Positions 32,041 through 52,702 of a DNA stretch of 64,000 nucleotides are shown here, piece by piece. The translations under genes were made by a program, and so were the position numbers. Under the pieces are notes generated by a model that searched no databases, was not told the DNA's origin, and saw only the letters and a list, made by a program, of their open reading frames with translations. Position 1 is the stretch's first letter. The number at the start of each line of letters is the position of its first letter. This stretch comes from Candidatus Fraserbacteria bacterium (GTDB taxonomy: Bacteria > Bipolaricaulota > Bipolaricaulia > RBG-16-55-9 > DRXL01), in the NCBI GenBank assembly GCA_947085185.1, contig CAMTVK010000007.1, positions 76,191-140,190 on the forward strand, in the 5' to 3' direction.

Positions 32041-34458
32041 GTGAGGTCCGACGCAGCCAGACGCGCAGCACAGGTTTTTTTTCTGGTGATTCTCTCGCTG
32101 GTGATGCTGAGAGGGGGCACGAGCGGAGCGCCCGTTGTGCTCGATATCGCTGACGCCAACCAAGATGTCACGATCTTTGGCGCGAACGCCAAAGACTTTC
32201 TGACGGACTTCAACTCGATAGCTATCGGCGATGTGAACGGGGACGGGGTCAATGATCTGATCTTAGGCGATCCTGCGGCCGATGTCGAAGAGGGCGACCG
32301 CCGCGACGCCGGAAAAGTCTATATTATATTCGGCCGAGCCAGGCTTGAGAAGACGTATGACTTGGCCAAATCCCACGCGGATATCGTCGTGACGGGGGCG
32401 CGTGCGGGGGATATGCTGGGCACGGCAGTCGCTGTCGGCGACATCAACGGCGACGGTCGGCTCGATTTAATTATTGGCGCATCGGGAGTTGACGGCCCCG
32501 ATGGGCTGCCTGAGCGCCGCCGCGACGCCGGAGCGGTCTACGTGCTTTTTGGGCGCCCCACCCCCAACAAAGTGATCGATATCTTTGATGGTGACCAAGA
32601 TATGACGATCCACGGCGAGTCTCCTGGGGATCGTCTTGGCGCTGCGGTGGCCGCAGGGGATCTCAACGGCGACGGCATCGCTGATATAATTCTCTCTGCG
32701 ACCGACGCCGATGGCCCGCGCAAGGAGCGAGCCAACGCCGGACAAGTCTATGTGCTCTTTGGCAGCACGAGCCTGCCGCGCACGATCGACCTAGCCCGCC
32801 AGAACGCCGATATGACGGTCTTTGGCCGCAACGCGACCGATCAGGTGGGCAGCGTCGTGGTGAGCGCCAACGTCAATGGGGACGGCTTTGAAGATGTGAT
32901 CATCGCGGCGCCTCAGGCCGACGGCCCCGGCAACGGGCGCAACAACGCCGGGGAGGTCTATATAATTTTTGGGGCGACCACGCTGCCTGCCCGTGTAGAC
33001 TTGGCCAAGGATCGTCCGGACGTGTTGATCTACGGGGCCGACGCGGGGGATACCCTGGGGGTCTCGGTGGCGTTTGGCGACGTTGACGGTGACGGTGTGC
33101 ATGATGTGATTCTTGGTGCTCCTGGGGCGAGCGGGCCCCAAAATAAGCGCTCTGGCGCCGGTGAGGTCTATGTGCTCCTGGGCAGTTCTGTGAGAGGGGG
33201 AGTTCATGACTTCGCTTTAGGACAATACGATATGATCGTCTACGGTGCGGAGGCTGGGGATCGGCTGGGGCGGGCGGTCGCCTCGGGGCAGATCGGCGGG
33301 GCGAGCTTCGCTGAGCCCTTCTGGGATATGGTGCTTGGTGCAGACTCCGCCGACGGGCCGGAGAACAAGAGATTCAACGCTGGGGAGGCATATCTGATCT
33401 TAGGGCAGAGCCCCTTGCCCAGGACGGTCGATCTTGCGGCCAAGGACGCGCCCGTGACGGCAAGCTTTCTCGGCGCCCAGAGCGATGATCGTCTGGGGAG
33501 CGCCGTGATTGCTGGGGACTTAGACGGCGACGGCTTCGCCGAGGTCATCTTGGGCGCGCTCAACGCTGATGGGGAAGGGAATTTAAAGCCCGATTCTGGC
33601 GAAGCGTATATCTTTTTTGGGAGTCGCTTTGGCCCGCCCAAGCCACCCAATCAGCCCCCGGTTGCCAACGCCGGAGCTGATCAGACTGTGACCGTCGGGA
33701 CGCGTGTGACGCTCAACGGGACTCAATCGAGAGATCCCGACGGTGATCCCATCGCATTCCAATGGCGCTTCGTCTCGGTTCCTGAGGGGAGCGCGGCTGA
33801 ATTGACAGACGCAGACACGGCCAAACCGACGTTCACCCCTGACGTCGTGGGGGAGTATATTCTTGAGCTGGTCGTGACCGATCCTGACGGGGCCACAGGG
33901 TCCGATCAAGTGAAGGTCACCGCTACGGCAGCGCCGACACGCATGAAGGGCGATGTGAACGGCGACGGCAAAGTTGATATTGTGGACGCCAAGCTCGCGG
34001 CCGAATTTATCGTGGGCTTGCGCGATCTTGATGGGCCATCTCGCTGGGCCGCGGACGTGCGCGAGCCGTGTCAGCCTGCCCCAGGAAGCCCCCAGAATAT
34101 TGACGTGACCGACGTGCGCTGGATCGCGGAGTTTGCTATTGGCGTGCGCACGGAGATGTTCTGTCTTGAGGTGCCCATGCCTACAGCGTCAACGAGGGAG
34201 CTGGCGCCGTTGCGCGTGCGCCCGCTGCATAGAACTGTAGAATTCTCGGCTCCCGCAGGCACCCAGATCTCCGTGAAGATCTTCGACATGCTGGGTCGGG
34301 TCGTCTATTTTGCAGAATCGGCTTCGGGGGTGCTGCGGTGGGCGCTCGACGATGTCGGCGGTCGACCCGTGGCCAACGGCGTCTATCTGGCAGTGCTGGA
34401 GCTTTGGGACGGGACGTATGGCACGCGCGCGGTGCGCAAGCTCATCGTGCGTCGGTGA
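32041..34458 (+). CDS. Secreted FG-GAP repeat, PKD-like, dockerin and T9SS/FlgD-like CTD protein
   Basis: Repeated GDxNGDG...GAP; NQPPVANAG; GDVNGDGKVDIVDA; IFDMLGR...ANGVYL...KLIVRR. Confidence 0.8.
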   Translation: MRSDAARRAAQVFFLVILSLVMLRGGTSGAPVVLDIADANQDVTIFGANAKDFLTDFNSIAIGDVNGDGVNDLILGDPAADVEEGDRRDAGKVYIIFGRARLEKTYDLAKSHADIVVTGARAGDMLGTAVAVGDINGDGRLDLIIGASGVDGPDGLPERRRDAGAVYVLFGRPTPNKVIDIFDGDQDMTIHGESPGDRLGAAVAAGDLNGDGIADIILSATDADGPRKERANAGQVYVLFGSTSLPRTIDLARQNADMTVFGRNATDQVGSVVVSANVNGDGFEDVIIAAPQADGPGNGRNNAGEVYIIFGATTLPARVDLAKDRPDVLIYGADAGDTLGVSVAFGDVDGDGVHDVILGAPGASGPQNKRSGAGEVYVLLGSSVRGGVHDFALGQYDMIVYGAEAGDRLGRAVASGQIGGASFAEPFWDMVLGADSADGPENKRFNAGEAYLILGQSPLPRTVDLAAKDAPVTASFLGAQSDDRLGSAVIAGDLDGDGFAEVILGALNADGEGNLKPDSGEAYIFFGSRFGPPKPPNQPPVANAGADQTVTVGTRVTLNGTQSRDPDGDPIAFQWRFVSVPEGSAAELTDADTAKPTFTPDVVGEYILELVVTDPDGATGSDQVKVTATAAPTRMKGDVNGDGKVDIVDAKLAAEFIVGLRDLDGPSRWAADVREPCQPAPGSPQNIDVTDVRWIAEFAIGVRTEMFCLEVPMPTASTRELAPLRVRPLHRTVEFSAPAGTQISVKIFDMLGRVVYFAESASGVLRWALDDVGGRPVANGVYLAVLELWDGTYGTRAVRKLIVRR

Positions 34459-34605
34459 CGCGTGCTACTTCTATGCCGTGACTTAAGTTACATACAGGGT
34501 GCACGGCATGGGCTACAATGGCAATGATGAAAACACTGACAAGGCAGGTCATCACTTATGATGAGAGACTCTAGTCGGCGCACCGGTGAAGGGAGGTCCT
34601 CAAGC

Positions 34606-36696
34606 GTGGGTATGAGAAAGAGAAGCTGGTTGCTCGTGCTGATGCCGATATTCGTGCTGGGGTGGGCGGTGGGAGCGTTGGCCGACGACGAAACCGACGT
34701 GTTCAACGCCAACGCGGGCAACACCGAGCCCAATCCCAACCCAGGAGAGAACTTCGTCGTCATCCAGGACGTCATCGTGGCTGATCCAGGACCCTTCGGG
34801 GATACGACTCCCGATAGCTTCCCCACGGCGATCGAGACGGTGACGGTTCGCAAGGCCGGTGGGACTCTTGAAGATCACTTTGTCTTAGCGTTGCGGCTCT
34901 ATCTCGATGACGGCGATGGGCTCTTTGACCCCACGGTGGACCGACTCTTAGGGGCGGTCAACGCGCCCCGGCTGAGCGCAGGGGTTGTCTTCGGCACCCG
35001 AGGGCAGCTCTTGGTGCTGGTGCCCAACAGCGGCTCAGTGGAGTTCTTCGTCGTTGCTGATTTTGCCAACGACGCGCCCGATGGGGCAACCCTGCGCACC
35101 AGTTTTGACTTGACCGTCGGGGATAGCTTGATCGGCGGGCCGACGACGAGCTCGCGCATTGACAGCGCGACGTCGCTGCCCATCTTAAATTTCGATGCGG
35201 GGCTGCCTGTGCCCGTGGGGTTCATTCGCATCACCGCGGCGACGGGCGACGCCGAAACGGACGTCATTGATGAGACCCCCGCGCGCACGGCCAACCCCGG
35301 AGATTCTATCGTCCTGCAAGAGTTCTTGGTCTCCGATCCCGGCGTGTCGGGCGATGCCGTGCCTGATGGGCTGGGCACGCTCATCCGCACGGTCACGGTC
35401 AGAAAAGTTGGCGGGACGATCTCCAGCGATAAGATCTTGAGATTGAGGCTCTTTCGGGCGAGCCCGCGCACCCCGCCAGGGTGGGATGAGCAAGACGAGC
35501 TGTTAGCTGTTGTGAATGCGCCCAATCTGGAGCGCGGCGTTGTCTTCGGCGACGGCGGCCGACGCTTGGTCCGCATCAACGACAACTCCGAAGAGAGATT
35601 GTACGTCGTCGCCGATCTGGCGCCGGTGGGCTTCGTAGACGGCGACACGCTGCGCACCAGCGTGGAGATCGTGGCCCGCGACGACAAGACCGACCCGGGC
35701 GAACAATCTTCGGCGATCGAGACGCCCATGCCGGTCGCGGCTTCCAATCAGCTTGTCGTGAAAGTTCCCCCGCCGACGCTCATCGTTGGCTCAGCGTCGA
35801 TCGTGGGCAAGACGAAGATCCCCATCTCGATCAGATTTGTGCCTGGGCCGGGGCTGGGCGAGCTCCAGATCGGCCCCGACGGCGCCCTGACGTTCGATCC
35901 CACAGTCGTCCAGGTGCTCAACATCAAGGGCGTTGGGCCGTATATCGTTGACTCGGTCAATATTGATTCGATCGAGGGTCGGGCGCAATTTGCGCTCACG
36001 CTCAAGCCGGGACGGACAGCCCTCAACGAAGGGGTCATCGCTGAGATCGAGGTGGACAAAGCCCCCGGGGCTCCCCCAGGCGAGTCCGTGCGCATAGATA
36101 TCGAAGACATCGAGGGCCTTGAGGTCGTCGATGTCTTTCGTGACGCGGCCGGGCGCGATCTGTTGCCCGATATCGTCCCTGGGGTGGTCACGATCAAGCT
36201 GCTCAAGGGCGATGTGGACGGCGACGGGGTCGTGACGGTGAGCGATGCGCGCTTGGCGGCGCGGTTCATTCTGGGCATGGAGACGCTCTCCCCCGAGCAA
36301 GAAGAAGCCGCGGATGTGGCGCCGCCCTTGGGAGTGATCGATGCGACCGATGTGCGCTATATCGCCCAAGCGGCGACGGGCCTGCGCCGGCTGGAGCAGC
36401 CAACGAGCGCGACGCTCACCCCGCAAGCACGCCCGACGCATCGCGTGACGGCGAAGCTGCGCGCCGGCACCCTCGAAGTGCGCGTCGCAAGCCAAGCCGT
36501 CGCCGAGACGACCGTCAGAGTCTTCACGCTCACCGGAAAGTCTGTGACGACGGTGCAGGCCTCCGGACCGACGGTGCGTCTTAGCGAAGGCGATCTTGCC
36601 GGACTGCCTAACGGCGTCTATCTCTATACAGTCACGGTCTTAGGCCCTGATGGAGTCTGGCAGAGCGACGTGCGCAAGTTCTTGTTGATACGCTAA
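34606..36696 (+). CDS. Secreted protein: two tandem beta repeats, cohesin-like, dockerin, CTD
   Basis: Internal repeat of about 180 aa; LTFDPTVVQV; GDVDGDGVVTVSDA...ADV...DATD; LPNGVYLY...KFLLIR. Confidence 0.75.
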   Translation: MGMRKRSWLLVLMPIFVLGWAVGALADDETDVFNANAGNTEPNPNPGENFVVIQDVIVADPGPFGDTTPDSFPTAIETVTVRKAGGTLEDHFVLALRLYLDDGDGLFDPTVDRLLGAVNAPRLSAGVVFGTRGQLLVLVPNSGSVEFFVVADFANDAPDGATLRTSFDLTVGDSLIGGPTTSSRIDSATSLPILNFDAGLPVPVGFIRITAATGDAETDVIDETPARTANPGDSIVLQEFLVSDPGVSGDAVPDGLGTLIRTVTVRKVGGTISSDKILRLRLFRASPRTPPGWDEQDELLAVVNAPNLERGVVFGDGGRRLVRINDNSEERLYVVADLAPVGFVDGDTLRTSVEIVARDDKTDPGEQSSAIETPMPVAASNQLVVKVPPPTLIVGSASIVGKTKIPISIRFVPGPGLGELQIGPDGALTFDPTVVQVLNIKGVGPYIVDSVNIDSIEGRAQFALTLKPGRTALNEGVIAEIEVDKAPGAPPGESVRIDIEDIEGLEVVDVFRDAAGRDLLPDIVPGVVTIKLLKGDVDGDGVVTVSDARLAARFILGMETLSPEQEEAADVAPPLGVIDATDVRYIAQAATGLRRLEQPTSATLTPQARPTHRVTAKLRAGTLEVRVASQAVAETTVRVFTLTGKSVTTVQASGPTVRLSEGDLAGLPNGVYLYTVTVLGPDGVWQSDVRKFLLIR

Positions 36697-36703
36697 ACCC
36701 TCT

Positions 36704-37675
36704 ATGCGAAAGATTCTTCTCAACGCTCTGCTTGCTCTTGGCATAGCGGTCTTGGTCGTGGGGTGCTTTCCAAAGCCCAGTGGGCCCCAGCCCCCACAGG
36801 CCCTCTTTTCGTTCAATCCCATCACCCCCAAAGTCGGCGATGACGTCGTCTTCGACGCTTCGGAATCGAAGGACCCCGACGGACAGATTATTGAGTATCT
36901 GTGGGATTTTGGCGACGGCTCGCCCACCGAGAGCGGCCCTATCGTCCTTCATGCCTACGAGAGCGCCGGACAATACACGGTCAAGCTCACCGTCACCGAC
37001 GATCAGGGGCTGTCGAACAGCTCAGAGAAGAGCATTACGGTCGTGGCCAGCCAAGCGAGCGCCGTGAAGAGATCTCTGCCCGCGCCGGCCCAAGGCCCCG
37101 GGGGGATCGCCTGGGACGGCTCAGCCTTGTGGGTCGTGGACTCCCTCGATTTGATGAATTATAAAATTTACAAAGTAGACCCGCAAAGCGGGAGCGTGCT
37201 CAGCTCCTTTGAGGTGCCCACGATCGAGCCCGATGGGCTGGCGTGGGACGGCAGTCGCTTATGGCTCGTAGACGGTGTCGAAGGGAAGCTCTTACAGATT
37301 GATCCGTCGAGCGGGAAAGTCTTAAAGACGCTCAACGCGCCGGGGCCGTATCCCACGGGGATCGCCTGGGATGGCGCGGCCCTGTGGGTCGCCGACGCCG
37401 ACACGCTCAAGATTTACAAGATCAATCCTGTGACAGGGAAAGTGATCGACTCGTTCGACGCCCCAGGGGACTTTCCGACGGGGCTGGCCTGGGATGGGAA
37501 GTTCCTCTGGCACCTAGACGCAGTCAGTATCTATAAGCTCGATCCTAACGGTGGAGCGGTCTTGGCCGAATACGAAGCGCCGCGGGATCGGCTCTCTGAC
37601 TTGACGTGGGACGGGCAGTTCTTGTGGGCCACCGACGAAGAGGGCAAGCAGCTGGTGCAGCTTGGGTTTGAGTAG
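36704..37675 (+). CDS. Lipoprotein with PKD domain and beta-propeller repeats
   Basis: VVG-C lipobox; WDFGDG; five GxAWDG/LTWDG repeats. Confidence 0.8.
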   Translation: MRKILLNALLALGIAVLVVGCFPKPSGPQPPQALFSFNPITPKVGDDVVFDASESKDPDGQIIEYLWDFGDGSPTESGPIVLHAYESAGQYTVKLTVTDDQGLSNSSEKSITVVASQASAVKRSLPAPAQGPGGIAWDGSALWVVDSLDLMNYKIYKVDPQSGSVLSSFEVPTIEPDGLAWDGSRLWLVDGVEGKLLQIDPSSGKVLKTLNAPGPYPTGIAWDGAALWVADADTLKIYKINPVTGKVIDSFDAPGDFPTGLAWDGKFLWHLDAVSIYKLDPNGGAVLAEYEAPRDRLSDLTWDGQFLWATDEEGKQLVQLGFE

Positions 37676-37681
37676 TATTGT

Positions 37682-37755
37682 TTGAATCACGGAGAGCACG
37701 GAAGTGGGGCATTCTTCCGTGCTTTTTATATCTCTCCGTGCCTTCCGTGATTCAA
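37682..37755. repeat. CACGGA palindromic element copy 2
   Basis: TTGAATCACGGA...TCCGTGATTCAA terminal inverted repeat. Confidence 0.85.
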
Positions 37756-37877
37756 TCCCCCATAGTAACGTAGATTACTGACGTCTGGCCCCTGGCAGGG
37801 TATCATAGGTCCAGCTGGCAGGGAAACGAGCGGACGCGCCAACAGCGCGATCTCCCTGAAAACACAGGAGGTGCCTT

Positions 37878-40031
37878 GTGAGCAAGAGTTCAGTTGTTTT
37901 GAGCATAGTCCTTGTCCTAGGGGCAATGGCGAGCGTAGTAGTAGTGGGGGTGGCCTCCACGTCAGGTAATCCCGAGACGATGGTCTTGAGGGACTTCTCC
38001 GGGGCGGTGGAGCCGGTGGCCCGTCCGGGCCAGACGTTCGTCGTCGCTGGGGCTATCAGAGTGTTCGATCCAGGGGATGACGGAGCGCCTACAGCGATCG
38101 AGACGATCTCCCTCTGCTTAGCGCCAACAAGCACCCTGAGCAGTCGATATATCAGTGGGCTGCGGCTCTACGTTGATGAAGGGTTCAATGGCTTTTTCGA
38201 TCGGCGCGAGAGCACACTCTTAGGTTCGGTGGTGCGGCCCAAGCTCGATGACTGTGAGAACCCCGTCACGTTCGGGCGACCGGGGAATCTATTTGTGCTC
38301 GTGCCTGATCGTGGGGCGAAGCTCTTCTTCGTCGTCGTTGATATCGCTTCCGATGCGCCTGATGGCGCAAGCCTTGTGCTGAGCTTCGACGCGGAAGCGT
38401 CCGATGGGCTGCGCGGCGGCCCGGCGATCAGCTCTGGCTTCAGTGCTGATCAAGGCCCGCCAGTATTTACTGATACTATAACAATTCGTGCCACAGGCGG
38501 CGACGCCGAAGCCGACGTCGTCGACGAGACCCCAGCTCTCACAACTCGCCCCGGCACGAGCGTTGTCGTCCAGCAGTTTGTCATCGCTGATCCCGGCTCT
38601 GACGGTGATACCGAAGATGACGACTTAGCGACTCTCGTGCGCAGCATCACCGTGCAAGCCGTACGCGAAGAGACGACGATAGATCTCTCGCCGGGTGTGG
38701 GGCTGATTCAGAGAGTCAGATTATTCCGGGAGAGCGGGCGCACCGGCCCGGGCTGGCAAGAGGGCGACGAACTTTTAGGAGAAGTCGTGCGGCCCGACTT
38801 GGCTGCCGGGGTGACGTTTGGCAGCGGCGGCCGGAGATTGCTCCGAGTAGGACGGAACAACATCTTCGGCACGGGCGGCGTAGAGCGGCTCTATGTCGTC
38901 GTGGATTTGGCTTCCGGCGGCTTTGCCCACGCTCCTACAGAGAATCTCTTGCGCACGCAGATCACCGTTGTGGCCAGCGACGACAGCTCCGAAGACGGCG
39001 AAGAGTCTTCAGGGATCGAGACCCCTATGCCCGTGATAGCCAATAACGCTATTCAGATTGTGACAGTCAACCCCGGCGGCACGGCGGGGAGTGCTCGAGT
39101 CGTCCTGGGAGACGTGAGCCTGCTACGTGCTGGCAAGGCCGTGATGCGTGTGGAGGGCGTGCCCTTGCCCGGCCTAGCGAGCGTAATGGGCATGGTTAGT
39201 TTCGATCCCGATATCATTCAGGTAGCCGCGACGAAGCAGGGGGGCTATCGTGTGCGCGGCCTGGGCAATTATCGCGTAGATTTTCTCGATGTGAACAACG
39301 AAGGCGGCACGATAGAGTTTCTCTTGACTCTCAAGGGGGGGCGCAAGCCCTTGATCGGCGACGGCAGTGTCATGGAGATCGAGTTCGTCTCTGTGGAGGA
39401 TATAAACCCGGGAGATGAGTCATATCTTAATGTTGAGATTGAAGACGCGCGGGACGCTCGCGGGGGTGAGCTGGTCTTCGACGAGGTGAGCGGCAGGGTG
39501 CGCATTCAGCTCATCATGGGCGACGTGGACGGCAACGGAGTTGTGACCCGCCGCGATGCCAGGCTGCTGGCGCGCTGGCTCCTGGGCCGTGCCGTGCTTA
39601 CTCCCCTTCAAAAGAAAGTCGCCGACGTTGATCACTCCTGTCCGCCTGGCACCGACTGGGCGGCGCTCGCTCCGGGTGGCTGCGTGAACGAGACCGACGT
39701 GCGCTGGATCAAAGAAGCCGCGGCCGGCCTGCGCACCCTCAGCTCGAGTGCGAACTTACAGGCGCTCGGTCGCGGGCTGACGGTCTTGACGCTGCCGTCG
39801 GGCGGTCTGGAGTTCCGAGCCCTGAATGCTGAGCGTCTGAGCGTGCAGGTCTTCGGTCTATCGGGGAGCTTGGTCTTCAATGCCGAGACTACGACCGGAA
39901 CCCTGCGCTTCGAGGGCGTCTCCAACAAGGGCGCTCGTCTTGCCAAGGGCGTCTATCTGTACGTGGTGACGCTCTACGGGCGCGACGGAGCCGTGTGGCG
40001 CAGTGAAGTGAGAAAGCTCGTAGTGCGATAG
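37878..40031 (+). CDS. Paralog of 34606 gene: tandem repeats, cohesin-like, dockerin, CTD
   Basis: Shared DETP, ADPG, ERLYVV, IETPMPV motifs; VSFDPDIIQV; GDVDGNGVVTRRDA; LAKGVYLY...KLVVR. Confidence 0.75.
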   Translation: MSKSSVVLSIVLVLGAMASVVVVGVASTSGNPETMVLRDFSGAVEPVARPGQTFVVAGAIRVFDPGDDGAPTAIETISLCLAPTSTLSSRYISGLRLYVDEGFNGFFDRRESTLLGSVVRPKLDDCENPVTFGRPGNLFVLVPDRGAKLFFVVVDIASDAPDGASLVLSFDAEASDGLRGGPAISSGFSADQGPPVFTDTITIRATGGDAEADVVDETPALTTRPGTSVVVQQFVIADPGSDGDTEDDDLATLVRSITVQAVREETTIDLSPGVGLIQRVRLFRESGRTGPGWQEGDELLGEVVRPDLAAGVTFGSGGRRLLRVGRNNIFGTGGVERLYVVVDLASGGFAHAPTENLLRTQITVVASDDSSEDGEESSGIETPMPVIANNAIQIVTVNPGGTAGSARVVLGDVSLLRAGKAVMRVEGVPLPGLASVMGMVSFDPDIIQVAATKQGGYRVRGLGNYRVDFLDVNNEGGTIEFLLTLKGGRKPLIGDGSVMEIEFVSVEDINPGDESYLNVEIEDARDARGGELVFDEVSGRVRIQLIMGDVDGNGVVTRRDARLLARWLLGRAVLTPLQKKVADVDHSCPPGTDWAALAPGGCVNETDVRWIKEAAAGLRTLSSSANLQALGRGLTVLTLPSGGLEFRALNAERLSVQVFGLSGSLVFNAETTTGTLRFEGVSNKGARLAKGVYLYVVTLYGRDGAVWRSEVRKLVVR

Positions 40032-40150
40032 AACCACGGAAGGCACGGAAGTGTCCCACGGAGGGCACGGAAGAACGGCGCTTCCGTGCTTTCCGTGGCC
40101 TTTCTGTGTGCTCCGTGGTTCCAAGCTTGCACGGCTAGGGAGCACCCGCG
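39963..40150 (+). repeat. Direct repeat of about 188 bp, copy 1 (gene 3-prime end plus CACGGA element copy 3)
   Basis: Near-identical to 41927-42113. Confidence 0.9.
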
Positions 40151-40240
40151 GGGGCGTGTTTTAAAGTCGTACGCAGGGCAATGTAAAGCCCCACCATAAA
40201 ATCTTCAGTGAGCTTAGCAGGAACGCTTGAAAGATTCAAA

Positions 40241-44429: not shown

Positions 44430-44577
44430 TCGTTAGCTGTGGGGCACATTGGTATGTGATCTATTTTGTTGGATATGCCAATGTGCCACACGTGCTTTTA
44501 TGATGAAGGGGAGGTGATCGTCGTTAATATTGCTGGGGTTTACATCAGGGTCAACCACAAAAAAGGAGGTTTTACCA

Positions 44578-45576
44578 ATGAAGCGAAGCAAATGGCAGGT
44601 CTTAGGAAGTTTGGCGGCCGCAGTAACTTGTTTGGTCGGGCTTGTTGCGCTGGCAGCGGTCATCATTGGCACGCCAAATGATGACGTGATTGTTGGCACT
44701 CCTTCAGGAGATCTGATCAAAGGCTTGGAAGGGAACGACGATATCTCCGGTGGGTTCGGAAACGACCGAATTGAAGGCGGCCCAGGTGATGACACCATAG
44801 ACGGTGAAGAAGGATCTGACCGAATCTCTGGTGATTCCGGGAACGACACTTTGACAGGAGGGGACGGCAGCGATCTCATTGATGGTGGCAGCGATGACGA
44901 TAGTATTGATGGTGGCGATGGAAACGATCGGCTCTTAGGTGGCTCAGATGGTGATGTTATCATAGCTGGTAGTGGTAATGATCGCCTCGAGGGGGGTACC
45001 GGCAACGATGGGCTCAATGGTGGACCGGGCAACGATCTCCTCAATGGAGGAGAGGGTGATGAAGATGCTCTTGCTGGCGGCATCGTTGGCGGCGACGGCA
45101 ACGATCGGCTGATCGGTGGGTCAGGTGATGACAATCTAGGTGATACCAACGGAGACTGTACGGACGACGAAGAACCGGGCAACGATCGGCTGGAAGGCGG
45201 CGAAGGCGACGATGTGCTCTGTGGAGGCAGCGGCAACGATCTGCTGGTGGGCGGGCCGGGCGCTGACGACAATGGGGGCATCACTCCCATTACTGGAGGC
45301 TTCGCCGATGCTCTACCTGAAACCGACACATACTGGATCCGTCAAGGAGACGTGCCGGAGTTAGAAGTAGAGACCTATCTTTGCACTACTGAAGCAGGTG
45401 ATACCGGGATCATCATCTTCTTTGGGCGGCAGTTCAACTTCCCGCCGGGCGTCATTGTGCCCGGGCAGCTCTTCGACAACGCTCCAGGTCCCGATCTCGT
45501 CGTTACTGATCCTTCGACTTTCGGGATGTACGAGATAGACGCAGGCCCCGGGACGTGCTTAATCAGGAAGCGCTAA
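44578..45576 (+). CDS. Signal-peptide RTX repeat protein 2
   Basis: Many GGxGNDxL repeats; AAGGAGG RBS. Confidence 0.85.
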   Translation: MKRSKWQVLGSLAAAVTCLVGLVALAAVIIGTPNDDVIVGTPSGDLIKGLEGNDDISGGFGNDRIEGGPGDDTIDGEEGSDRISGDSGNDTLTGGDGSDLIDGGSDDDSIDGGDGNDRLLGGSDGDVIIAGSGNDRLEGGTGNDGLNGGPGNDLLNGGEGDEDALAGGIVGGDGNDRLIGGSGDDNLGDTNGDCTDDEEPGNDRLEGGEGDDVLCGGSGNDLLVGGPGADDNGGITPITGGFADALPETDTYWIRQGDVPELEVETYLCTTEAGDTGIIIFFGRQFNFPPGVIVPGQLFDNAPGPDLVVTDPSTFGMYEIDAGPGTCLIRKR

Positions 45577-45793
45577 CTTCGGCAGTAGATTGAGCTGAGC
45601 AAAGATCGGATAACACCGGGGGTCTCGCGGGTGCGGGGCCCCCGGAGTGGTTTTAAGACCGTACGAAGGGCCGCGAAAGCACCTATGGATGCCGCGACTC
45701 GCGCCAGTCCTGGATGATCGTGGGGAGCGCTAGGATTAGAGCAACTAGCACAACTCCCCCCAGCAGGACGTAAAGGCCAAGATACTCCATAAT

Positions 45794-45991
45794 TCATTCA
45801 CTCCTCTTCTTGGGTCGAGTGAGCATGTAAGCCAGCCAGGCAAGGATACCGTAGGTCAAGATGCCGATTGTCCCCAGCGATAGCCGGAAGCCCTCTGGGC
45901 TCAAGATTTGTCCGAAGACTAACGCTCCCACCGCTATGTTCGCTGTATCCATCAGCTTTTCCGCGAAGAGTCGCCGTTGCTCTGGAGTCAT
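45794..45991 (-). CDS. Small two-TM hypothetical protein
   Basis: 65 aa, two hydrophobic segments, TGn-TAAGCT upstream. Confidence 0.6.
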   Translation of the reverse strand: MTPEQRRLFAEKLMDTANIAVGALVFGQILSPEGFRLSLGTIGILTYGILAWLAYMLTRPKKRSE

Positions 45992-46160
45992 AGACGCAAT
46001 TAGCTTAGCAAGAGAGATTCAAGAATTCAAGGCGGTTGGGCGTGACGCGCGTCACCGACGCTGGGGGCCCTTGTCCCGTATAATAGTGCCATGAGCGATC
46101 CATGCGCTGCGCTGAGAAGCGCGGGCCGGCACAAGCTAACACTTTGGAAGGAGGCATGCG

Positions 46161-47060
46161 ATGACACAACGACAATTTTACCGAACGGCGATCGCAATCT
46201 TGGGGATCTCAGCGCTGGCAGCGCTGGGGATTGTCAGCTATCTGGTGCTGGCGCTGAACTTCACTTGCCCACCCGCTGGAACGAGCGGCACAACAGTCAC
46301 CCTCTGCCAGGGAACAGATAGAAGCGATACAATTGTGTTCGCCTCCGGAATTTCTGCCAGTACCATCACAACCATCAATGGTGGAGGTGGCAGCGATCGC
46401 ATCATTCTAGACTCAAGGGGCACAACAACGCTCGCTATCGGTTCCAATCCGCAAGTCAATGGAGGAGATGGCAACGATAGTATCACGGTTGATTCTCGCG
46501 TGACCAATAATATACAGATAAACGGTGGGGCAGGCAATGATGTGATTTTCGATGGCGGTGGCGGTACTGCAACGCTCCCGTTGAGAGGCGAGGCTGGCAA
46601 CGATATCATCCGAGGGAATGGAGGAAACGACACGATTGAGGGGGGAGATGGCAACGATTTCCTGCTAGGTGGAACGGGCACTGACACAATCAATGGTGGA
46701 CCAGGCAACGATATAATTGACCCTGGCCCAGACGGGGATGGAACCACTTTCCCAGCGACAGCCACAGCCGGCCCCATAGATGGCGGCGGAGGCAATGATG
46801 TTTTTATTCTTCGGCGAGGAGATTCCGGTAATGTTCAAGAGAATATCATCTGCACGCGTAACTCGTCAGATCGCAGCGTGGTGAGATTGGTCGGTTACTC
46901 CAAAGACGATCCAGCCTTAGCGGGGATCGCGCCTAGCGTGTTGCCGCCTGATCCGTCTCCGTTACCGACGATTCCTGGAGCGATTATTCGCGACGGTACA
47001 GGAAGCTTCAGGATCTTCGCTGGGCCGGGCCGTTGTTCGATTGTGGTCGGCACGCGTTAG
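46161..47060 (+). CDS. Signal-peptide RTX repeat protein 3
   Basis: GGxGND repeats; AAGGAGG RBS. Confidence 0.85.
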   Translation: MTQRQFYRTAIAILGISALAALGIVSYLVLALNFTCPPAGTSGTTVTLCQGTDRSDTIVFASGISASTITTINGGGGSDRIILDSRGTTTLAIGSNPQVNGGDGNDSITVDSRVTNNIQINGGAGNDVIFDGGGGTATLPLRGEAGNDIIRGNGGNDTIEGGDGNDFLLGGTGTDTINGGPGNDIIDPGPDGDGTTFPATATAGPIDGGGGNDVFILRRGDSGNVQENIICTRNSSDRSVVRLVGYSKDDPALAGIAPSVLPPDPSPLPTIPGAIIRDGTGSFRIFAGPGRCSIVVGTR

Positions 47061-47093
47061 ATTTATAACGAAAGCTCTTGAAGGAGGTTCGCA

Positions 47094-47960
47094 ATGTTGG
47101 AGCGCTTTAAGGAGCAAACTAGTCTCGGTCTGGTGCTTGTCTTCGCTCTTGTCGGAGTGATAGGCTTTATCGCTTGGGCTGCCGTGATCAACGGCACTCC
47201 GGGGGATGATGATATTGAAGGAACGTCTGCGAATGACAACATCAAGGGATTCGCTGGCGACGATGTCATAAGCGGTAAGGGCGGAAATGACTTCATAGAC
47301 GGCGGTCTGCACGATGATATGATCGCCGGTGACTTCGGAAACGATACCATCTTCGGTGGCGACGGCGATGACACCATCTGCGGTGGTGGCTACGAAGATC
47401 CTTCCGGTAAGTCTGGATGCGATTTCACTTCCCCCAATTTCCCGGTTACCAGTGATGTGATCAACGGTGGTCGCGGCAACGACATGATCTTCGGCAGCAG
47501 TGGCAACGACCGTCTTATGGGCGGCCCCGGCCACGACACGCTCGTCGGCGGGGCCGGGAATGACTATATTGACGGTGGCACCGGCAATGACACCATTGAT
47601 GAATTAGTGGACGATGGCAGTATAAGCGATTGCGGGAACAACACTCTCATCGGCGGAGCGGGCAACGATGTCATCACCGGCGGCTGCGGCAACGACTTTA
47701 TAGATCCTGGGCAAGGGCTCGATCAAGTAGACGCCGGCCCGGGCGATGACACGATCATCATCCGTCCTGGGGACGTCACGGGATTCCAGACAGAGATCAT
47801 CGCCTGTGGCGAAGGCGACAACGATACGGTGCTGCTCTCCGGCTTCCCGCGAGGGATCCAGCTTCCCACTGGCACCAACCCGCCGGTGACAGTCACCGAT
47901 CCCTGGACACGGGGGACGTATCTTATTGACGCCAGCTGCGAGATCATCGCCCGACGCTAG
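47094..47960 (+). CDS. Signal-peptide RTX repeat protein 4
   Basis: GGxGND repeats; AAGGAGGT RBS. Confidence 0.85.
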   Translation: MLERFKEQTSLGLVLVFALVGVIGFIAWAAVINGTPGDDDIEGTSANDNIKGFAGDDVISGKGGNDFIDGGLHDDMIAGDFGNDTIFGGDGDDTICGGGYEDPSGKSGCDFTSPNFPVTSDVINGGRGNDMIFGSSGNDRLMGGPGHDTLVGGAGNDYIDGGTGNDTIDELVDDGSISDCGNNTLIGGAGNDVITGGCGNDFIDPGQGLDQVDAGPGDDTIIIRPGDVTGFQTEIIACGEGDNDTVLLSGFPRGIQLPTGTNPPVTVTDPWTRGTYLIDASCEIIARR

Positions 47961-48133
47961 CCCTAGCGAGGTTGGCAGGAGCGACGCGCATCAGAAGTCT
48001 GAAGAGTCCATAGAGTCTCGGGAGTCGGACTCTATGGACTCTCTTGACTCTCCTCAGGGACCGCCGTGACGTCGAGGAAGGACAGCCGGCCTTGCACCCC
48101 GCTCCCTAAACACCCTACAATGTGCCACAGCTT

Positions 48134-49432
48134 ATGAGCGGAAAAATACGGCGCGTCATGATCGGCCTCGGCTGGCTCGGCCTCGCCTTGCTCAGCTTGC
48201 TCTCTTCTGATAAGAATATTCACGCCCAACAGGCCCTCGCCGAAGTCAGCGTCGAGAGCAAAACTCTCGCGCCTAACTCCACCGGCTCCGTCACTATTAG
48301 CATCAGCGAAGGCCCCAACGCCGGCGTCGCCGACATCCAAGGGACCCTGCGGTTCGATCCCAGAGTCCTCAAAGCGACTAAAGTCGAGGGCCAGCAGGAC
48401 TACGAGGTCTTCGCTTCTAAGCTCGATAACAACGCCGGCGAAGCGAAGTTCGTCGTCACCAAGCTGCGCGCCCCCTACGCGAAAGCCGGCCCACTTATCA
48501 AGATCGAATTCCAAGCGATCGGCAGATCGGGCGATAGATCAGATCTTCGGCTCACTTTAGATAAGCTGGGCGATCCCACCGATCGCACTATACCCCATAA
48601 GATCATCAACGGGCTGATCACGCTGGGAATGGTGCAGAATCAGCCGCCCACTGCGAATTTTAGTTTCACCCCCGCCGCGCCCAAGGTGGACGAAGAGATC
48701 TCGTTCAAGGACGAATCTACTGATCCTGACGGCCCAACAGACATCGTCAGTTGGGAGTGGGACTTCGGCGATGGCACCACGAGCACCGAACAGAACCCCA
48801 AGAAGAAATACGCTCAGAAGAAAGTCTACGACGTCAAGCTCACGGTGAAGGACAGAGCGGGGCTGCCCAGCTTTGTGGTGAAGAAAGTTCCGGTGGGCAT
48901 CGTGCCGCCCAAAGCTGATTTTGTGTTCAGCCCCACAAGCCCCGAAGTCGGCGACGAGGTTCAGTTTACGGATAAGTCTACCGACGACGGCAAGATCGTT
49001 GGGTGGCGCTGGGACTTTGGTGACGGCACCACGAGCACTGAACAAAACCCCAAGAAGAAATACGCTCAGGCGGGAACTTTTAAAGTCAAGCTCACCGCGC
49101 GGGATAACGATGGCGCCGAGAGCACCGTTGAGAAGAGCATCACTGTGAAGGCTTCAAGTAGGCCGATCATCGGGGTCTTTCCCAATCCGGCGCGCGACAG
49201 TGCGACGTTTGTGTTCACCTTGCCGCCTGGGGCGACCGGCGGGACGTTGCTTGTCTTCAATATCGCTGGGAGGGTCGTGCTGCGCAAGGAGAAGCTGACG
49301 GGAACCCAATTTGTGTGGGACATCAAGAGGGACGATGTGCCCAGCGGCCCCTATTACTATCTCATGATCGCGTTCAAGGAGAACTCTGTGATAGGCCGCT
49401 CGCGCATTGAGAAACTCATCATTCAGCGTTAG
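48134..49432 (+). CDS. Cohesin-like, two PKD, T9SS-like CTD protein
   Basis: IQGTLRFDPRVLK; two WDFGDG; FPNPA...FNIAGR...SGPYYY...KLIIQR. Confidence 0.8.
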   Translation: MSGKIRRVMIGLGWLGLALLSLLSSDKNIHAQQALAEVSVESKTLAPNSTGSVTISISEGPNAGVADIQGTLRFDPRVLKATKVEGQQDYEVFASKLDNNAGEAKFVVTKLRAPYAKAGPLIKIEFQAIGRSGDRSDLRLTLDKLGDPTDRTIPHKIINGLITLGMVQNQPPTANFSFTPAAPKVDEEISFKDESTDPDGPTDIVSWEWDFGDGTTSTEQNPKKKYAQKKVYDVKLTVKDRAGLPSFVVKKVPVGIVPPKADFVFSPTSPEVGDEVQFTDKSTDDGKIVGWRWDFGDGTTSTEQNPKKKYAQAGTFKVKLTARDNDGAESTVEKSITVKASSRPIIGVFPNPARDSATFVFTLPPGATGGTLLVFNIAGRVVLRKEKLTGTQFVWDIKRDDVPSGPYYYLMIAFKENSVIGRSRIEKLIIQR

Positions 49433-49442
49433 GGAGGAGCCG

Positions 49443-50387
49443 ATGCGCCGTGCGTTTTGGCTGCTAGGACTGACTCTTATAGGGCTTGGGGGTGTGGGGC
49501 AGGCCCGCCCGCTCGTCACGGTCTTCGATATTGGCGCGGGGGTGCGCCCGGTGAGCTTGGGCGAGGCGTTCACGGGCCTGGCCGACGACGAATACGCGCT
49601 CTTCTATAACCCCGCAGGATTAGCTCTGCTCACCGGCGGTCGGGCGAGTCTCTTATATCAGTCGCACTTTGGCGCGTCCACGTATCTCAGCGCATTGGGG
49701 AGTTTTGGGAATATCGGGGGCGGACTGATATTCTTTGATTTTGGTCAAGTGCCCTGTCTGACGGCGCAGAACCAGCCCTGTAAAGACGCTCAAGGCAAGA
49801 CGATTAGCTCGTTCGGGTATTCGAGCTTCGCTCTGGCGGTCGGCTGGGGCGCTCCAATGCGCTCGTTGCCGTTCTTGAGCAATCTTCCCCAAGGGTTGGC
49901 GCTGGGGCTGAGAGTAAAATTCGTCTCGATCACGAGTTTCGATCCCGTCAAGTTTCAGTCTTTAGGGATCAGCGGGTTTGTGTTTGACCCGTCGTTGTTG
50001 TGGGAGCTCGGGGCGTTTGGGCCGGTTGAGGCCGTTCGTGTGGGCGTGGTCTTAGAGAATTTGCTCGGTTTGGCGTTTGGCGCTTCAGCAGAAGAGAATT
50101 TCCCGATGGGGCTGCGCCTGGGGGCCTCGGCACGCGCGCTCGATTTGGTCACGGTGAGCGCGGATCTTTCACTGAATGACGGGTTTCATCTGGGAGCTGA
50201 ATATACTCTGACGAAGCTAGGCCCTCTGGAGAGCTTGAGCATTCGTGCGGGGATGCTCACTCGGACGGGGCTGGGAGTGAGCGTGGGGCTGGGGGTCGTC
50301 TTCGGCACGCTGCAGATAGATTACGCGTTTCTCTTTCATCCCGATTTTGAGGGCTCGCACTGGCTCTCCGCGTCGTTTCGCTTCTAG
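49443..50387 (+). CDS. PorV/PorQ-like (UPF0164/FadL-fold) outer-membrane barrel
   Basis: GVRPVSLGEAFTGLADD...YNPAGL N-motif; IDYAF; terminal SFRF. Confidence 0.78.
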   Translation: MRRAFWLLGLTLIGLGGVGQARPLVTVFDIGAGVRPVSLGEAFTGLADDEYALFYNPAGLALLTGGRASLLYQSHFGASTYLSALGSFGNIGGGLIFFDFGQVPCLTAQNQPCKDAQGKTISSFGYSSFALAVGWGAPMRSLPFLSNLPQGLALGLRVKFVSITSFDPVKFQSLGISGFVFDPSLLWELGAFGPVEAVRVGVVLENLLGLAFGASAEENFPMGLRLGASARALDLVTVSADLSLNDGFHLGAEYTLTKLGPLESLSIRAGMLTRTGLGVSVGLGVVFGTLQIDYAFLFHPDFEGSHWLSASFRF

Positions 50388-50486
50388 TGCGCGGACGTGA
50401 TCTCCATCACTTCCCCAATGCTTGAGATTCAGTACAATAGATGTGTTCTTATTCGGGCCTGTGTGGCCCGCTGATGAGGAGGTCTC

Positions 50487-51536
50487 ATGAAGCGCACAGA
50501 GCGATGGGCGATCTTCGTCGTCTTGCTGGGGTGGAGCACGATGGCGTTCGCGCAGGAAGCCGCGGTGCTCACGGTGGAGAGCGTGACCGTGCCCCCAGCG
50601 GCCAAGACGACCATATCCGTCACGGTAGCACACGTCCCTGCGCCGGGCATCGCCAGCATCCAAGGACGATTCTCATACGATCCGAAAGTGCTCAAAGTCA
50701 CCGATGTGGCATTTCCGCAGATTGTGGGTGCCAACGTCACGGTCTTTAATAATACTCCGGAGTCCGGTCTGGTCCGATTTGCCGCGACGCTTGCCGGCGC
50801 AGACATCGCAGGGATCACCGAGGGGACGCTCTTAGAGTTTTCCGTAGAAGCCGTGGGCAAAAACGGCGACAAGAGCACGCTCACCCTCACCGTCGAAGTC
50901 CTGAGCGATGTCGGGTACAACGCCGTGCCGTATCAGATTATTAATGGGACTTTCGAGATCAAAGAAGTCGTCAATCAGCCACCGGTTGCGGACTTTGAGT
51001 TTGCTCCGGCGCAGCCGGCTGCGGGGCAGACCGTCAAGTTTACCGACAGATCCAAAGACCCCGACGGCCAAGTGAAGTCTTGGCAGTGGGACTTCGGCGA
51101 CGGCACCACAAGCACCGAACAGAATCCGTCGCACGTCTATCGCACTGCGGGGACGTTTACAGTAAAGCTCATCGTGACCGACGACAAGGGCGCGCCAAGC
51201 CCGCCCACCGAAAAGAAGATCACCGTGGGGCCGCCGGCGCAGATTGCTGTCACGATCACAAACTTCCCCAATCCCGCGAAAGATCGCACAAAGTTCGTCT
51301 ACGGCTGGACGCTGCCTGCGCCCGCCCGCCAAGCGACCTTGAGAATCTTCACCATCAAGGGCGAATTGGCCTTCACCAAAGACTTAGATACGAACAAGAC
51401 GGAGTTCATCTACGATCTGAAAGATAGTGTCGGTCGGCCCTTGCCCAACGGGCCGTACTTCTATGTGCTCTCTGTGACGGCGCAGGACAACAGTATCGTG
51501 CGCTCGGCAATCGGCGTCTTGGCCGTCCAACGATAA
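50487..51536 (+). CDS. Cohesin-like, PKD, T9SS-like CTD protein
   Basis: IQGRFSYDPKVLKV; WDFGDG; NFPNPA...FTIKGE...LPNGPYFY...LAVQR. Confidence 0.8.
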   Translation: MKRTERWAIFVVLLGWSTMAFAQEAAVLTVESVTVPPAAKTTISVTVAHVPAPGIASIQGRFSYDPKVLKVTDVAFPQIVGANVTVFNNTPESGLVRFAATLAGADIAGITEGTLLEFSVEAVGKNGDKSTLTLTVEVLSDVGYNAVPYQIINGTFEIKEVVNQPPVADFEFAPAQPAAGQTVKFTDRSKDPDGQVKSWQWDFGDGTTSTEQNPSHVYRTAGTFTVKLIVTDDKGAPSPPTEKKITVGPPAQIAVTITNFPNPAKDRTKFVYGWTLPAPARQATLRIFTIKGELAFTKDLDTNKTEFIYDLKDSVGRPLPNGPYFYVLSVTAQDNSIVRSAIGVLAVQR

Positions 51537-51547
51537 AGGGGGCTGCA

Positions 51548-52702
51548 ATGAGAGAGTTCCAAGTTCGAAGTTTCAAAGTTTGGGTGAGCCAGGGCTTAGT
51601 CTTTATAGCTCTGCTGGTTGCGATGACAAGCGTTGGGTCAGTTTTTGGGCAGACGCTGCTGTCGCTCTATGAGCTCGAGCGTGGGGCGCGCCCGGCGGCC
51701 CTGGGCGGCGCGTTCACCGGGCTCGCCGATGACGCCTATGCGCTCGTCTATAACCCGGCAGCGTTGGCGTTCTTAGAGCGAGCCAGCGCGCACGCGCTGA
51801 TCGAATCTCGCTTCGGAAGAGCTGTGTACGGTTCGGTCGTCGCCGGAGGACGCCATCTTGGGGTGGGCTTGGTCTTCTTGAATGTCTCGAATATTCCCTG
51901 GCGCGATGAGAATAACAAGCCCGTGCAAGGGGGCACGTTCGATTTCAGTCAATTGGGGCTCACCGTTGCTGGGGGGATCTCTTTGGCGGATCTCCCTTTG
52001 GGAGCGGGCTTGGGGGCTCTGCAGAATTTCGCTGTTGGGCTTCGGGCCAAGATCATAACTGTGAGCACATTGCCTGAGGGCAGCGGTGCGGGGTTCTCGC
52101 TCGAGCCGGCGCTCTTCTATAAGCTCAATAATGTAGGGAGCCTAGGGGGATTGCGCATCGGCGTTGTCATTGAGAATCTTGTGGGTTTGGGAGTGAGCTA
52201 TGGCAGTGGGCATAGCGAAAATTTCCCCATTGGGCTGCGTTTGGGAGCCTCGCTCAGCCCGGTGCCCGGGGCGATCCTGAGTGCTGATGTCGAAGCCAAC
52301 GGCACGGTGCACCTTGGGGGAGAATATAAGCTCTCTAACGCACAATTTGTTCGATTCGGCTTGCTCCAGCTTGCAGTGCGCGGTGGGGTGCTCGTGAGCC
52401 CATCGTTAGTACAAGCGAGCGTGGGGTTTGGCACGAGAATACGCGGTGGCCTGCAGCTCGATTACACGGCGCTGACGCACTCGGAATTGCCGATGACGCA
52501 TCGCGTGGAAGTTGCGTTTCGCTTTGGGTTTCAGAGTTTTCTCTGTCTGATACTGGGGCGATCGTGTCCGGCTCCCGAGGAAGAAGTGATACTTCCTCCC
52601 ACGGAGGAGCCGCAGCCTCCTGATGATCCTCCTGGTGACTCTCCGGAGTGCCCCGGCGATGACCCGAACGTAGACTGCGAAAACGATCCGTTCTGGCCGT
52701 AG
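51548..52702 (+). CDS. PorV/PorQ-like barrel with acidic Pro/Cys-rich C-terminal tail
   Basis: GARPAALGGAFTGLADD...YNPAAL; LDY; AFRF then about 58 extra residues. Confidence 0.78.
   Translation: MREFQVRSFKVWVSQGLVFIALLVAMTSVGSVFGQTLLSLYELERGARPAALGGAFTGLADDAYALVYNPAALAFLERASAHALIESRFGRAVYGSVVAGGRHLGVGLVFLNVSNIPWRDENNKPVQGGTFDFSQLGLTVAGGISLADLPLGAGLGALQNFAVGLRAKIITVSTLPEGSGAGFSLEPALFYKLNNVGSLGGLRIGVVIENLVGLGVSYGSGHSENFPIGLRLGASLSPVPGAILSADVEANGTVHLGGEYKLSNAQFVRFGLLQLAVRGGVLVSPSLVQASVGFGTRIRGGLQLDYTALTHSELPMTHRVEVAFRFGFQSFLCLILGRSCPAPEEEVILPPTEEPQPPDDPPGDSPECPGDDPNVDCENDPFWP

Follow-up and report, generated by a model that had tools for sequence, protein, structure and literature searches.

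A candidate barrel-anchored cohesin–dockerin surface system with type IX-like sorting domains in a Bipolaricaulota genome

The stretch of DNA analysed here (the window) comprises 64,000 nucleotides (nt) from the genome of a Candidatus Fraserbacteria bacterium, positions 76191-140190 of contig CAMTVK010000007.1 (C7) in assembly GCA_947085185.1 (G000; 1.72 Mb, 32 contigs, 96.8% complete). According to the open reading frame (ORF) list and the translations, twelve sizeable plus-strand genes lie within positions 32041-52702 of the window, and they fall into three blocks. The first block, A-D (32041-40031), and the third block, I-J-K-L (48122-52702), encode candidate components of a surface system that combines cohesins, dockerins, C-terminal domains (CTDs) resembling those found in type IX secretion systems (T9SS), and PorV-like outer-membrane barrels.

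In the first block, A (32041-34458, 805 amino acids (aa)) is a secreted protein with FG-GAP repeats, a K319L/PKD-like part, a dockerin-like module, and a type-A-like CTD. B (34558-36696, 712 aa) is likewise secreted and comprises two β-sandwiches resembling carbohydrate-binding modules (CBMs), a cohesin, a dockerin, and a CTD. D (37878-40031, 717 aa) is a paralogue of B with a cohesin-like part, a dockerin, and a CTD. In the third block, I (48122-49432, 436 aa) combines two PKD domains with a cohesin (aa 41-154) and a CTD (aa 352-436), and K (50487-51536, 349 aa) contains a cohesin (aa 28-158), one PKD domain (aa 163-242), and a CTD (aa 255-349). Each of them is directly followed by the gene of a PorV/PorQ-like barrel. 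The first barrel, J (49443-50387, in an ORF open from 49407), is 14-stranded; the second, L (51548-52702), spans about aa 35-327 and ends in an acidic, Pro- and Cys-rich tail (aa 328-384). On balance, we favour the view that these genes belong to a reduced T9SS-like sorting system, in which cognate barrels anchor cohesin proteins and dockerin proteins dock onto them.

The C-termini of A, B, D, I, and K align over their last 80-95 residues and share an (I/V)F..xG motif, an xG(V/P)Y motif, and a hydrophobic strand that ends in Arg. A hidden Markov model (HMM) built from the five recovers all of them with E-values of 1e-28 to 1e-36 (A, 1.3e-34; D, 6e-31). When applied to the genome, the same model finds seven extra C-terminal copies and two internal FlgD-like copies. 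C-terminal copies are rare, numbering 12 among the 8252 six-frame ORFs of at least 60 aa. Against the curated family TIGR04183 (cut-off 23 bits), I scores 22.1, K 18.1, B 17.0, and A 16.7 bits, and D gives no match. Likewise, I scores 21.0 bits against Por_Secre_tail (PF18962), just under the cut-off, and the tail of A gives sub-threshold matches to PorZ and Por_Secre_tail. K passes the FlgD_ig family (PF13860) with 27.9 bits (cut-off 27), and D scores 24.3 bits against CHU_C in Pfam. Precomputed annotations of K orthologues combine PF00963 with PF18962, and three CTD homologues of the genome, on contigs C19 and C14, exceed the TIGR04183 cut-off (24.0, 23.8, and 30.6 bits). The CTD of B (aa 628-712, nt 36439-36693) is modelled as a seven-stranded sandwich that matches the C-terminal region of PorU (6za2_A) with Z 9.1; in VIA-align of the B model, the fold likewise matches fibronectin-type domains with Z of about 8.

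Four cohesins are recognised in the genome, K and I and weakly D by Pfam and B by fold, and all four lie inside the window. I (34.4 bits) and K (41.4 bits) exceed the cut-off of the Pfam Cohesin family (PF00963, 24.1 bits), and their PKD domains match PKD_4 with 126.6 and 85.5 bits, respectively. An alignment of 24 relatives was the input for the structural model of B (predicted local distance difference test (pLDDT) score, 84.2). Foldseek of the whole model returns generic Ig-chain matches, and VIA-align was needed to resolve the domains. Residues 45-227 and 230-375 form the two sandwiches, the first of which resembles a sialidase N-terminal domain (6myv_C, Z 12.3). Residues 403-548 (nt 35764-36201) match the cohesin 4fl4_I with Z 17.0 and a root-mean-square deviation of 2.1 Å over 134 aligned residues; they also match 1aoh_A with Z 16.6 and 2xdh, a cohesin from Archaeoglobus that is not cellulosomal, with Z 14.6. 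The B cohesin is also similar to the K cohesin (BLASTP, E 2e-7). D is 44% identical to B and has the same architecture. Its cohesin-like part scores 19 bits in a six-frame search (E 0.0015), under the cut-off; paralogy to B and this weak Pfam match weakly suggest a cohesin.

Dockerin_1 (PF00404, cut-off 22.9 bits) is passed by B (27.6 bits) and D (24.0 bits). A, which matches FG-GAP with 179.4 bits and K319L-like_PKD with 63.1 bits in Pfam, stays under the Dockerin_1 cut-off (16.9 bits by hmmscan and 21.4 bits in the six-frame search). The dockerin of B (aa 550-610, nt 36205-36387) is modelled with three helices (aa 561-606) and matches the PDB dockerin 4uyq_B with E 1.1e-4. Loop 1 is canonical (GDVDGDG), and loop 2 is degenerate, with the conserved alignment consensus ADVAPPxGxxDxTD.

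These results bear on the original prediction, which had read a non-cellulosomal cohesin–dockerin surface system with T9SS-like sorting domains from the letters of the DNA. The claim that five secreted proteins end in one type of CTD holds, and so do the cohesin and PKD domains of I and K. For B and D, said to combine a cohesin-like domain with a dockerin, both dockerins and the B cohesin are borne out, and the D cohesin stays at the level of paralogy and a weak match; the dockerin of A is present as a match just under the cut-off.

The genome contains seven dockerin matches. Besides A, B, and D, the carriers are a CTD protein with DUF11 repeats, a sandwich protein of 343 aa, a lamin-tail protein, and an S8 peptidase. 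Six of the seven carriers are non-enzymatic repeat or adhesin-type proteins. The peptidase scores 102 bits for Peptidase_S8 and 21.2 bits for Dockerin_1 (23.1 bits including neighbours in frame). In A, B, D, and the C3 protein C3_183456, the dockerin directly precedes the CTD. Each cohesin protein has a single cohesin, and there is no tandem-cohesin scaffoldin. In accordance with the original prediction, the Pfam scan of the 12 window proteins matches no glycoside hydrolase family. It could be proposed that the cohesin–dockerin set gathers polymer-degrading enzymes in a cellulosome-like complex and does not form a structural or adhesive layer. The dockerin-like module on the S8 peptidase and the two CBM-like, sialidase-like sandwiches of B and D (Z 12.3) are in line with this proposal, as is a comparable proposal for Cloacimonadota (PMC8542988; here and below, papers are cited for the parts of their text that were retrieved). 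The lack of glycoside hydrolases in the window, the single cohesins without a multi-cohesin scaffoldin, and the six non-enzymatic dockerin carriers (FG-GAP, DUF11, and lamin-tail types, B and D among them) argue against it. We consider a degradative complex improbable.

Weak cohesin-like ORFs are also seen on contigs C3 and C1. The first (C3:182992-183450, minus strand) is a small ORF with weak likeness to the K cohesin (E 9e-6) and no Pfam match. It follows directly downstream of the DUF11-repeat gene, whose product has both a dockerin and a CTD. The second belongs to one frame (C1:74689-76857) that contains two lamin-tail domains, a dockerin (36.6 bits), a hydrophobic-basic stretch, an LTGC lipobox-like signal, and a cohesin-like domain, and represents either a fusion or two genes.

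The barrels J and L score 57.9 and 73.3 bits against PorV_fam (NF033709, cut-off 90 bits), and the other three PorV-like barrels of the genome score 39-60 bits. The coverage of J is nearly full (profile positions 6-320 of 326). The model of J (pLDDT 87.9) contains 16 DSSP elements, which we read as 14 long strands by merging 207-217 with 220-224 and excluding the loop strand 124-126. PorV is the top match of J in Foldseek (8gl6_F, E 5e-11; 6h3i_F, E 7e-9) and also in VIA-align (8gl6_F, Z 30.4; 6h3i_F, Z 30.1), ahead of FadL/TodX (Z 25-27.6). Profile and fold thus support PorV-like barrels, as predicted, directly 3' of the genes I and K. The stop codon of I is followed after 10 nt by ATG 49443, behind the ribosome-binding site GGAGGAG; this ATG is most likely the start of J, judged by sequence, and J is probably translationally coupled to I. 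The distance between the stop codon of K and the start of L is 11 nt. The tail of L (aa 328-384, nt 52529-52702) is acidic and Pro-rich and ends in CPGDDPNVDCENDPFWP. It is conserved in the orthologues P0040, P0042, P0044, and P0050 and absent from J-type barrels.

Since the FadL/TodX structures lie only 2.5-5 Z units under PorV, the barrels could be ordinary FadL-type channels for the uptake of hydrophobic compounds. The CTDs would then be generic Ig-like stalks, and the adjacency of the genes would have no meaning. The position of all barrels under the PorV_fam cut-off and the fibronectin-like fold of the CTD (Z about 8) would fit such channels, whereas PorV comes first in both structure comparisons. 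The arrangement of the genes bears on the same question. In this genome, four of the five PorV-like barrels adjoin a CTD gene. A scan with one genome per species returned 460 barrel relatives, and we kept 80 loci from many phyla, containing 90 barrel ORFs. A same-strand CTD gene is found beside 44 of the 90 (33 upstream and 17 downstream), which is probably an underestimate because the CTD model was trained on this genome only. Nine of the 90 barrels lie at the edge of a locus, without upstream information. Given the rarity of CTD genes (12 of 8252 ORFs), this frequency of adjacency argues against channels with meaningless neighbours, as do the gaps of 10-11 nt to the ribosome-binding site or ATG.

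Relatives, too, keep a cohesin-PKD-CTD gene paired with a barrel gene, which supports the original prediction. In loci L019, L020, and L021, all five barrel-adjacent CTD genes exceed the Pfam Cohesin cut-off. Locus L019 keeps the order of G/H-like RTX genes, I, J, K, L, and MurJ, with the G- and H-like genes directly upstream of the I orthologue. The I-L block of this locus abuts MurJ with no Uma2 gene between. The K-type cohesin occurs in 17 of the 18 genomes sampled from the order; in the other families of the class, none of 62 genomes has a match (E ≤1e-5). By our own reading of the table, 18 genomes have a match when G000 is counted, and 15 of these contain two K-cohesin matches at a distance of 2.0-2.5 kb. 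In addition, the cohesin-dockerin-CTD cassette of B stands behind varied N-terminal parts in many of 524 representative relatives.

The complex of L (aa 35-384) with the CTD of K (aa 250-349) was modelled with an alignment for each chain. The complex score is 0.89, and the best of three controls scores 0.00. The model contains 102-105 contacts with a partner pLDDT of at least 91, and the runs agree in at least 98% of the contacts. In a benchmark, 116 of 157 solved complexes and 2 of 215 mismatched pairs attained a score this high, counts that apply only approximately because we supplied our own alignments. On the side of K, the predicted interface includes the NFPNP, (I/V)F..xG, and NGPY motifs and the last strand. 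On the side of L, it includes the strand connections L1, L2, L3, L4, L6, and L7, which form the alternate-loop face, and the mature N-terminus. We take this face to be the outer face, by the standard topology of outer-membrane proteins. The CTD of K is therefore predicted to sit on barrel L. In the solved translocon, PorV binds type-A CTDs on that same face (PMC10994853). The contrast between 0.89 and 0.00 is a further argument against unrelated FadL-type channels, and we give that alternative little credence. The original prediction that barrels hold cohesin anchors gains from the complex model and the conserved gene pairing, with the model as the basis for the holding itself.

Close homologues of both J and K carry the name Candidatus Bipolaricaulota, and the organism is not a member of Bacteroidota, as had been suspected. 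The original prediction had also named bamA, sprA, and porU as genes to look for. A BamA-like protein is found in the genome (117 bits), so an outer membrane is likely. For the T9SS components, a metagenome-assembled genome (MAG) of Cytophagia, a Caldithrix abyssi record, and an Ignavibacteriales MAG, all reached via PorV-like loci, serve as positive controls. Full-length SprA (TIGR04189; about 2000-2600 aa) is over the cut-off in three of three controls and in none of seven Bipolaricaulota-type genomes. The PorU sortase (NF033707) is found at full length in the three controls, and in G000-G006 only profile positions from 946 on, the CTD part, are matched. SprA_N (PF14349) has no match in G000, in a search that did not include the control genomes. 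No secretin is matched in G000 (6 of 14 in the control set), and no PorK-type protein (GldK, FGE-sulfatase) is matched in G000 or G001 (two of three controls).

A half-size relative of SprA is nevertheless present. At C19:68276-75485 (L014:2276-9485), three genes in succession encode an S8 peptidase that bears a CTD, the third PorV-like barrel, and a 1401-aa outer-membrane protein with barrel-type ends and an inserted central propeller. An hhalign comparison of the five-member family of this protein with the three control SprAs aligns positions 52-553 with 157-743 in 465 columns, at a probability of 97.9% (E 3.7e-13), compared with 0.3% and 0.1% in control comparisons. The common stretch reads SEKVYLNGKLL.RD.DY.IDYE.G.L. 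Hhalign alone points to the link with SprA. The same triad of genes recurs in L044 and L056, two other loci from Bipolaricaulota, in L029, from Fraserbacteria, and in L023, from a MAG that bears the label Bacillota; locus L071 ends 289 aa into the ORF that follows the barrel. The relative has a length of 1320-1460 aa across four phylum-level lineages. All 21 genomes sampled from the order have it as a single copy, and in G018, G027, G029, and G045 it lies at most 2 kb from the cohesin/barrel tandem.

No canonical T9SS serves the locus, yet the locus is not independent of T9SS-type parts. The possibility, raised in the original prediction, that a canonical T9SS explains the locus fails as far as full-length SprA, PorU, a secretin, and a PorK-type protein are concerned, none of which is found. 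The idea of a system free of T9SS-type parts does not survive either, given the half-size SprA relative beside the S8-CTD peptidase and the third PorV-like barrel. A canonical T9SS might have been missed through assembly gaps or divergence, and the locus would then hold ordinary cargo and PorV/PorQ paralogues. Such an oversight could be blamed on the incomplete 32-contig assembly and on PorL, PorM, and PorN models that failed in the controls, and the SprA-related protein could be a trace of the missed system. It is, however, difficult to reconcile with SprA and PorU being over the cut-off in all three controls and in none of the seven Bipolaricaulota-type genomes, with an SprA relative that is no fragment, being of similar length in four phylum-level lineages and single-copy in 21 of 21 genomes, and with the failure to find the FGE-sulfatase fold in G000. 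We give a missed canonical T9SS hardly any weight.

In the favoured scheme, A, B, D, I, and K would be exported by Sec-type signal sequences, as read from the sequence, and sorted by their type-A-like CTDs. I and K would be the anchors, each co-transcribed with its own barrel (J and L, respectively). The barrel would bind the retained CTD on its outer face, as PorV/PorQ do with PorU/PorZ and as PorP/SprF-like barrels do with type-B CTDs. The N-terminal cohesins of I and K would receive dockerin proteins, namely A, B, and D and, from elsewhere in the genome, the S8 peptidase, the lamin-tail protein, and the DUF11-repeat protein. B and D, which also carry a cohesin, might serve as adaptors that enlarge the assembly. 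The route through the outer membrane would probably be the half-size SprA relative on C19. The S8-peptidase-CTD gene beside it may take the place held by PorU in Calditrichota and Coatesbacteria. In this picture, surface location, CTD retention, cohesin–dockerin pairing, and the export route are what we infer, and binding of CTD to barrel is a modelled step.

In the Caldithrix and Coatesbacteria loci, the gene upstream of the barrel encodes a Peptidase_C25 protein with a CTD, the porU-porV arrangement. In five loci, the position of the C25/PorU gene upstream of a PorV-like barrel is occupied by an S8-CTD gene. This replacement would fit a different fate for some of the CTDs. The CTD could be an export signal only and the barrels transient carriers; a protease, such as the S8-CTD peptidase beside the SprA relative, would strip the CTD from A, B, and D, the exposed dockerins would attach to cohesins, and only I and K would stay on barrels. 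Classical cellulosomal proteins have a C-terminal dockerin, and cleavage would leave exactly such a C-terminal dockerin in A, B, D, and C3_183456, where it directly precedes the CTD. This course would account for the CTD on dockerin proteins and for barrels being fewer than CTD proteins. It would have to do without the sortase-type PorU, which was not found, and with a hypothetical cleavage site and processing step. The large K-L interface (102-105 contacts) is no less compatible with stable than with transient binding. Cleavage of the CTDs is thus an unlikely alternative, though one to be taken seriously.

Several observations weigh against barrel-anchored cohesins served by a reduced T9SS. 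A, B, and D hold both a dockerin and a CTD, which a simple scheme of anchor and docked passenger fails to explain. Five barrels face twelve CTD proteins, so the pairing cannot be one-to-one. All five window CTDs are under the curated TIGR04183 and PF18962 cut-offs, and J and L are both under that of PorV_fam. A PorV-CTD complex has already been solved (8gl6), so the good score of the K-L model, whose benchmark is approximate, may partly reflect likeness to 8gl6 and not pair-specific binding. The SprA relative aligns to SprA only over its N-terminal third; the SprA family model gives no match to it in G000, and its profile finds no SprA in the PDB, only propellers of two-component regulators. 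The GldL, GldM, and GldM_1st models match no genome, controls included, and thus are silent on PorL, PorM, and PorN. Finally, the assembly is 96.8% complete in 32 contigs.

A more specific version of the favoured scheme can be formulated. Minimal T9SS-related sorting in Bipolaricaulota and, by locus structure, in Fraserbacteria-labelled and other lineages would consist of the half-size SprA homologue, an S8-CTD peptidase in place of PorU, and cognate PorV-like barrels, without sortase and possibly without motor. In the order of this genome, it would have been recruited in order to anchor single-cohesin proteins that nucleate a cohesin–dockerin layer on the outer membrane. We put this version forward tentatively.

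The remaining genes of the region are neighbours of the proposed system. C (36704-37675), between B and D, encodes a putative 323-aa lipoprotein with PKD and β-propeller parts (PKD_4, 83.3 bits; SGL, 36.3 bits; DUF6923, 37.5 bits in Pfam), the Cys after the signal sequence reading as a putative lipobox. It is missing from the original prediction. The second block (40.0-48.0 kb) interrupts the range that had been taken as a single system, with toxin-antitoxin and Uma2 genes at 40.0-43.5 kb and four RTX genes at 43.5-48.0 kb. The latter, E-H (43557-47960), encode paralogous RTX-repeat proteins of 288-348 aa on the plus strand (HemolysinCabind, 47-133 bits in Pfam). They share a hydrophobic N-terminal anchor and, in the alignment, a C-terminal domain (about 70 aa) in which two Cys are invariant and the last residue is Arg; no Pfam family covers this domain. 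E-H were considered as CTD cargo and rejected, as this Cys-containing domain is of a different family and has no CTD HMM match; whether they belong to the system is uncertain.

The toxin-antitoxin genes and two Uma2 genes, at 40433-40961, 42334-42815, 41326-41889, and 53565-54128, stand between and after the surface-protein blocks. The modules comprise a HicA toxin with a PHD_like/RelB-type antitoxin, and BrnT with a CopG-type antitoxin. Two near-identical GC-rich palindromes of 43 nt (CCACGGAGGGCACGGAAG...) are located at 40056-40098 and 42020-42062. About 200 nt after each, an identical promoter-like site and short ORF start, MGNVQRLTRLSLEQYNAPVRVAS, occur (40273-40345 and 42182-42254). Farther upstream in the window, a defence-island-like set (4383-14901, plus strand) includes a 1212-aa SNF2/ResIII helicase with NOV_C, a DUF1156 methyltransferase-like protein, a second methyltransferase-like protein, and an 873-aa DUF499 protein.

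Compared with the T9SS of Porphyromonas gingivalis and Flavobacterium johnsoniae, the locus has a 14-stranded barrel closest to PorV (Z 30) and a CTD predicted to sit on its outer-face loops. In the Caldithrix and Coatesbacteria loci, too, a CTD-bearing peptidase gene lies directly 5' of the PorV-type gene. In P. gingivalis, PorU, PorV, PorQ, and PorZ form a surface attachment complex (PMC10947112). In contrast, neither a PorU sortase nor full-length SprA is found here, and Bipolaricaulota lie outside the phyla sampled here that carry both. F. johnsoniae has a single PorV that serves all type-A CTDs (PMC12618676), whereas here several barrels are each encoded beside their own type-A-like CTD gene. 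The retrieved T9SS reviews and papers confine the system to Bacteroidota or the FCB group. Type-B CTDs follow the same genetic logic: their cargo gene is linked to the gene of its own PorP/SprF-like barrel, and this barrel binds the CTD and serves to anchor or target the cargo (PMC9143113, PMC12618676). The SprB-SprF and PG1035-PorP pairs thus share with our locus the linkage of cargo and barrel genes; our locus differs in its type-A-like CTDs (Por_Secre_tail/FlgD_ig matches) and in having barrels of the PorV/PorQ and not the PorP/SprF family.

In comparison with the clostridial cellulosome, the B cohesin resembles type I cohesin folds, and the dockerins resemble the type I dockerins of the PDB. 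A cohesin and a dockerin on one protein, as in B, resemble adaptor scaffoldins. The differences are one cohesin per protein, no glycoside hydrolases found, a CTD and an outer-membrane barrel in a diderm in place of SLH domains or sortase in a monoderm, and replacement of the second dockerin calcium loop by ADVAPPxGxxDxTD. The joining of cohesin–dockerin to a T9SS CTD, put forward in the original prediction, is already published for Cloacimonadota. In Candidatus Stygibacter, a cohesin scaffoldin with a T9SS CTD for self-attachment and dockerin proteins including an S8 peptidase have been proposed; the scaffoldin is a single protein of 3,755 aa with tandem cohesins and CBMs, and dockerins are carried by GH18 and GH57 enzymes (PMC8542988). 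The retrieved parts of that paper describe neither cognate barrels nor a missing T9SS core. In our literature search on cohesin, dockerin, and T9SS, it is the only report found to propose a comparable system. A search that paired Bipolaricaulota or Acetothermia with T9SS, PorV, SprA, cohesin, or dockerin yielded incidental mentions only and no paper that makes the link.

In the genome described here, a half-size SprA relative occurs with PorV-like barrels and type-A-like CTDs, and no PorU, secretin, or PorK-type protein is found. A sorting system of this composition would reveal what belongs to the ancient core of type IX sorting, and would offer a small model for the handover of a CTD to a barrel and its holding there. 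Pairing a type-A-like CTD with its own PorV-like barrel merges two rules that are kept apart in Flavobacterium. The small barrel-CTD and cohesin-dockerin pairs might serve surface display in diderm bacteria. If the minimal sorting system outlined above is real, anchoring of CTDs on barrels would be older and more widespread than the T9SS of Bacteroidota. The locus also provides a concrete, testable picture of the cell surface of Bipolaricaulota, here that of an uncultured bacterium.

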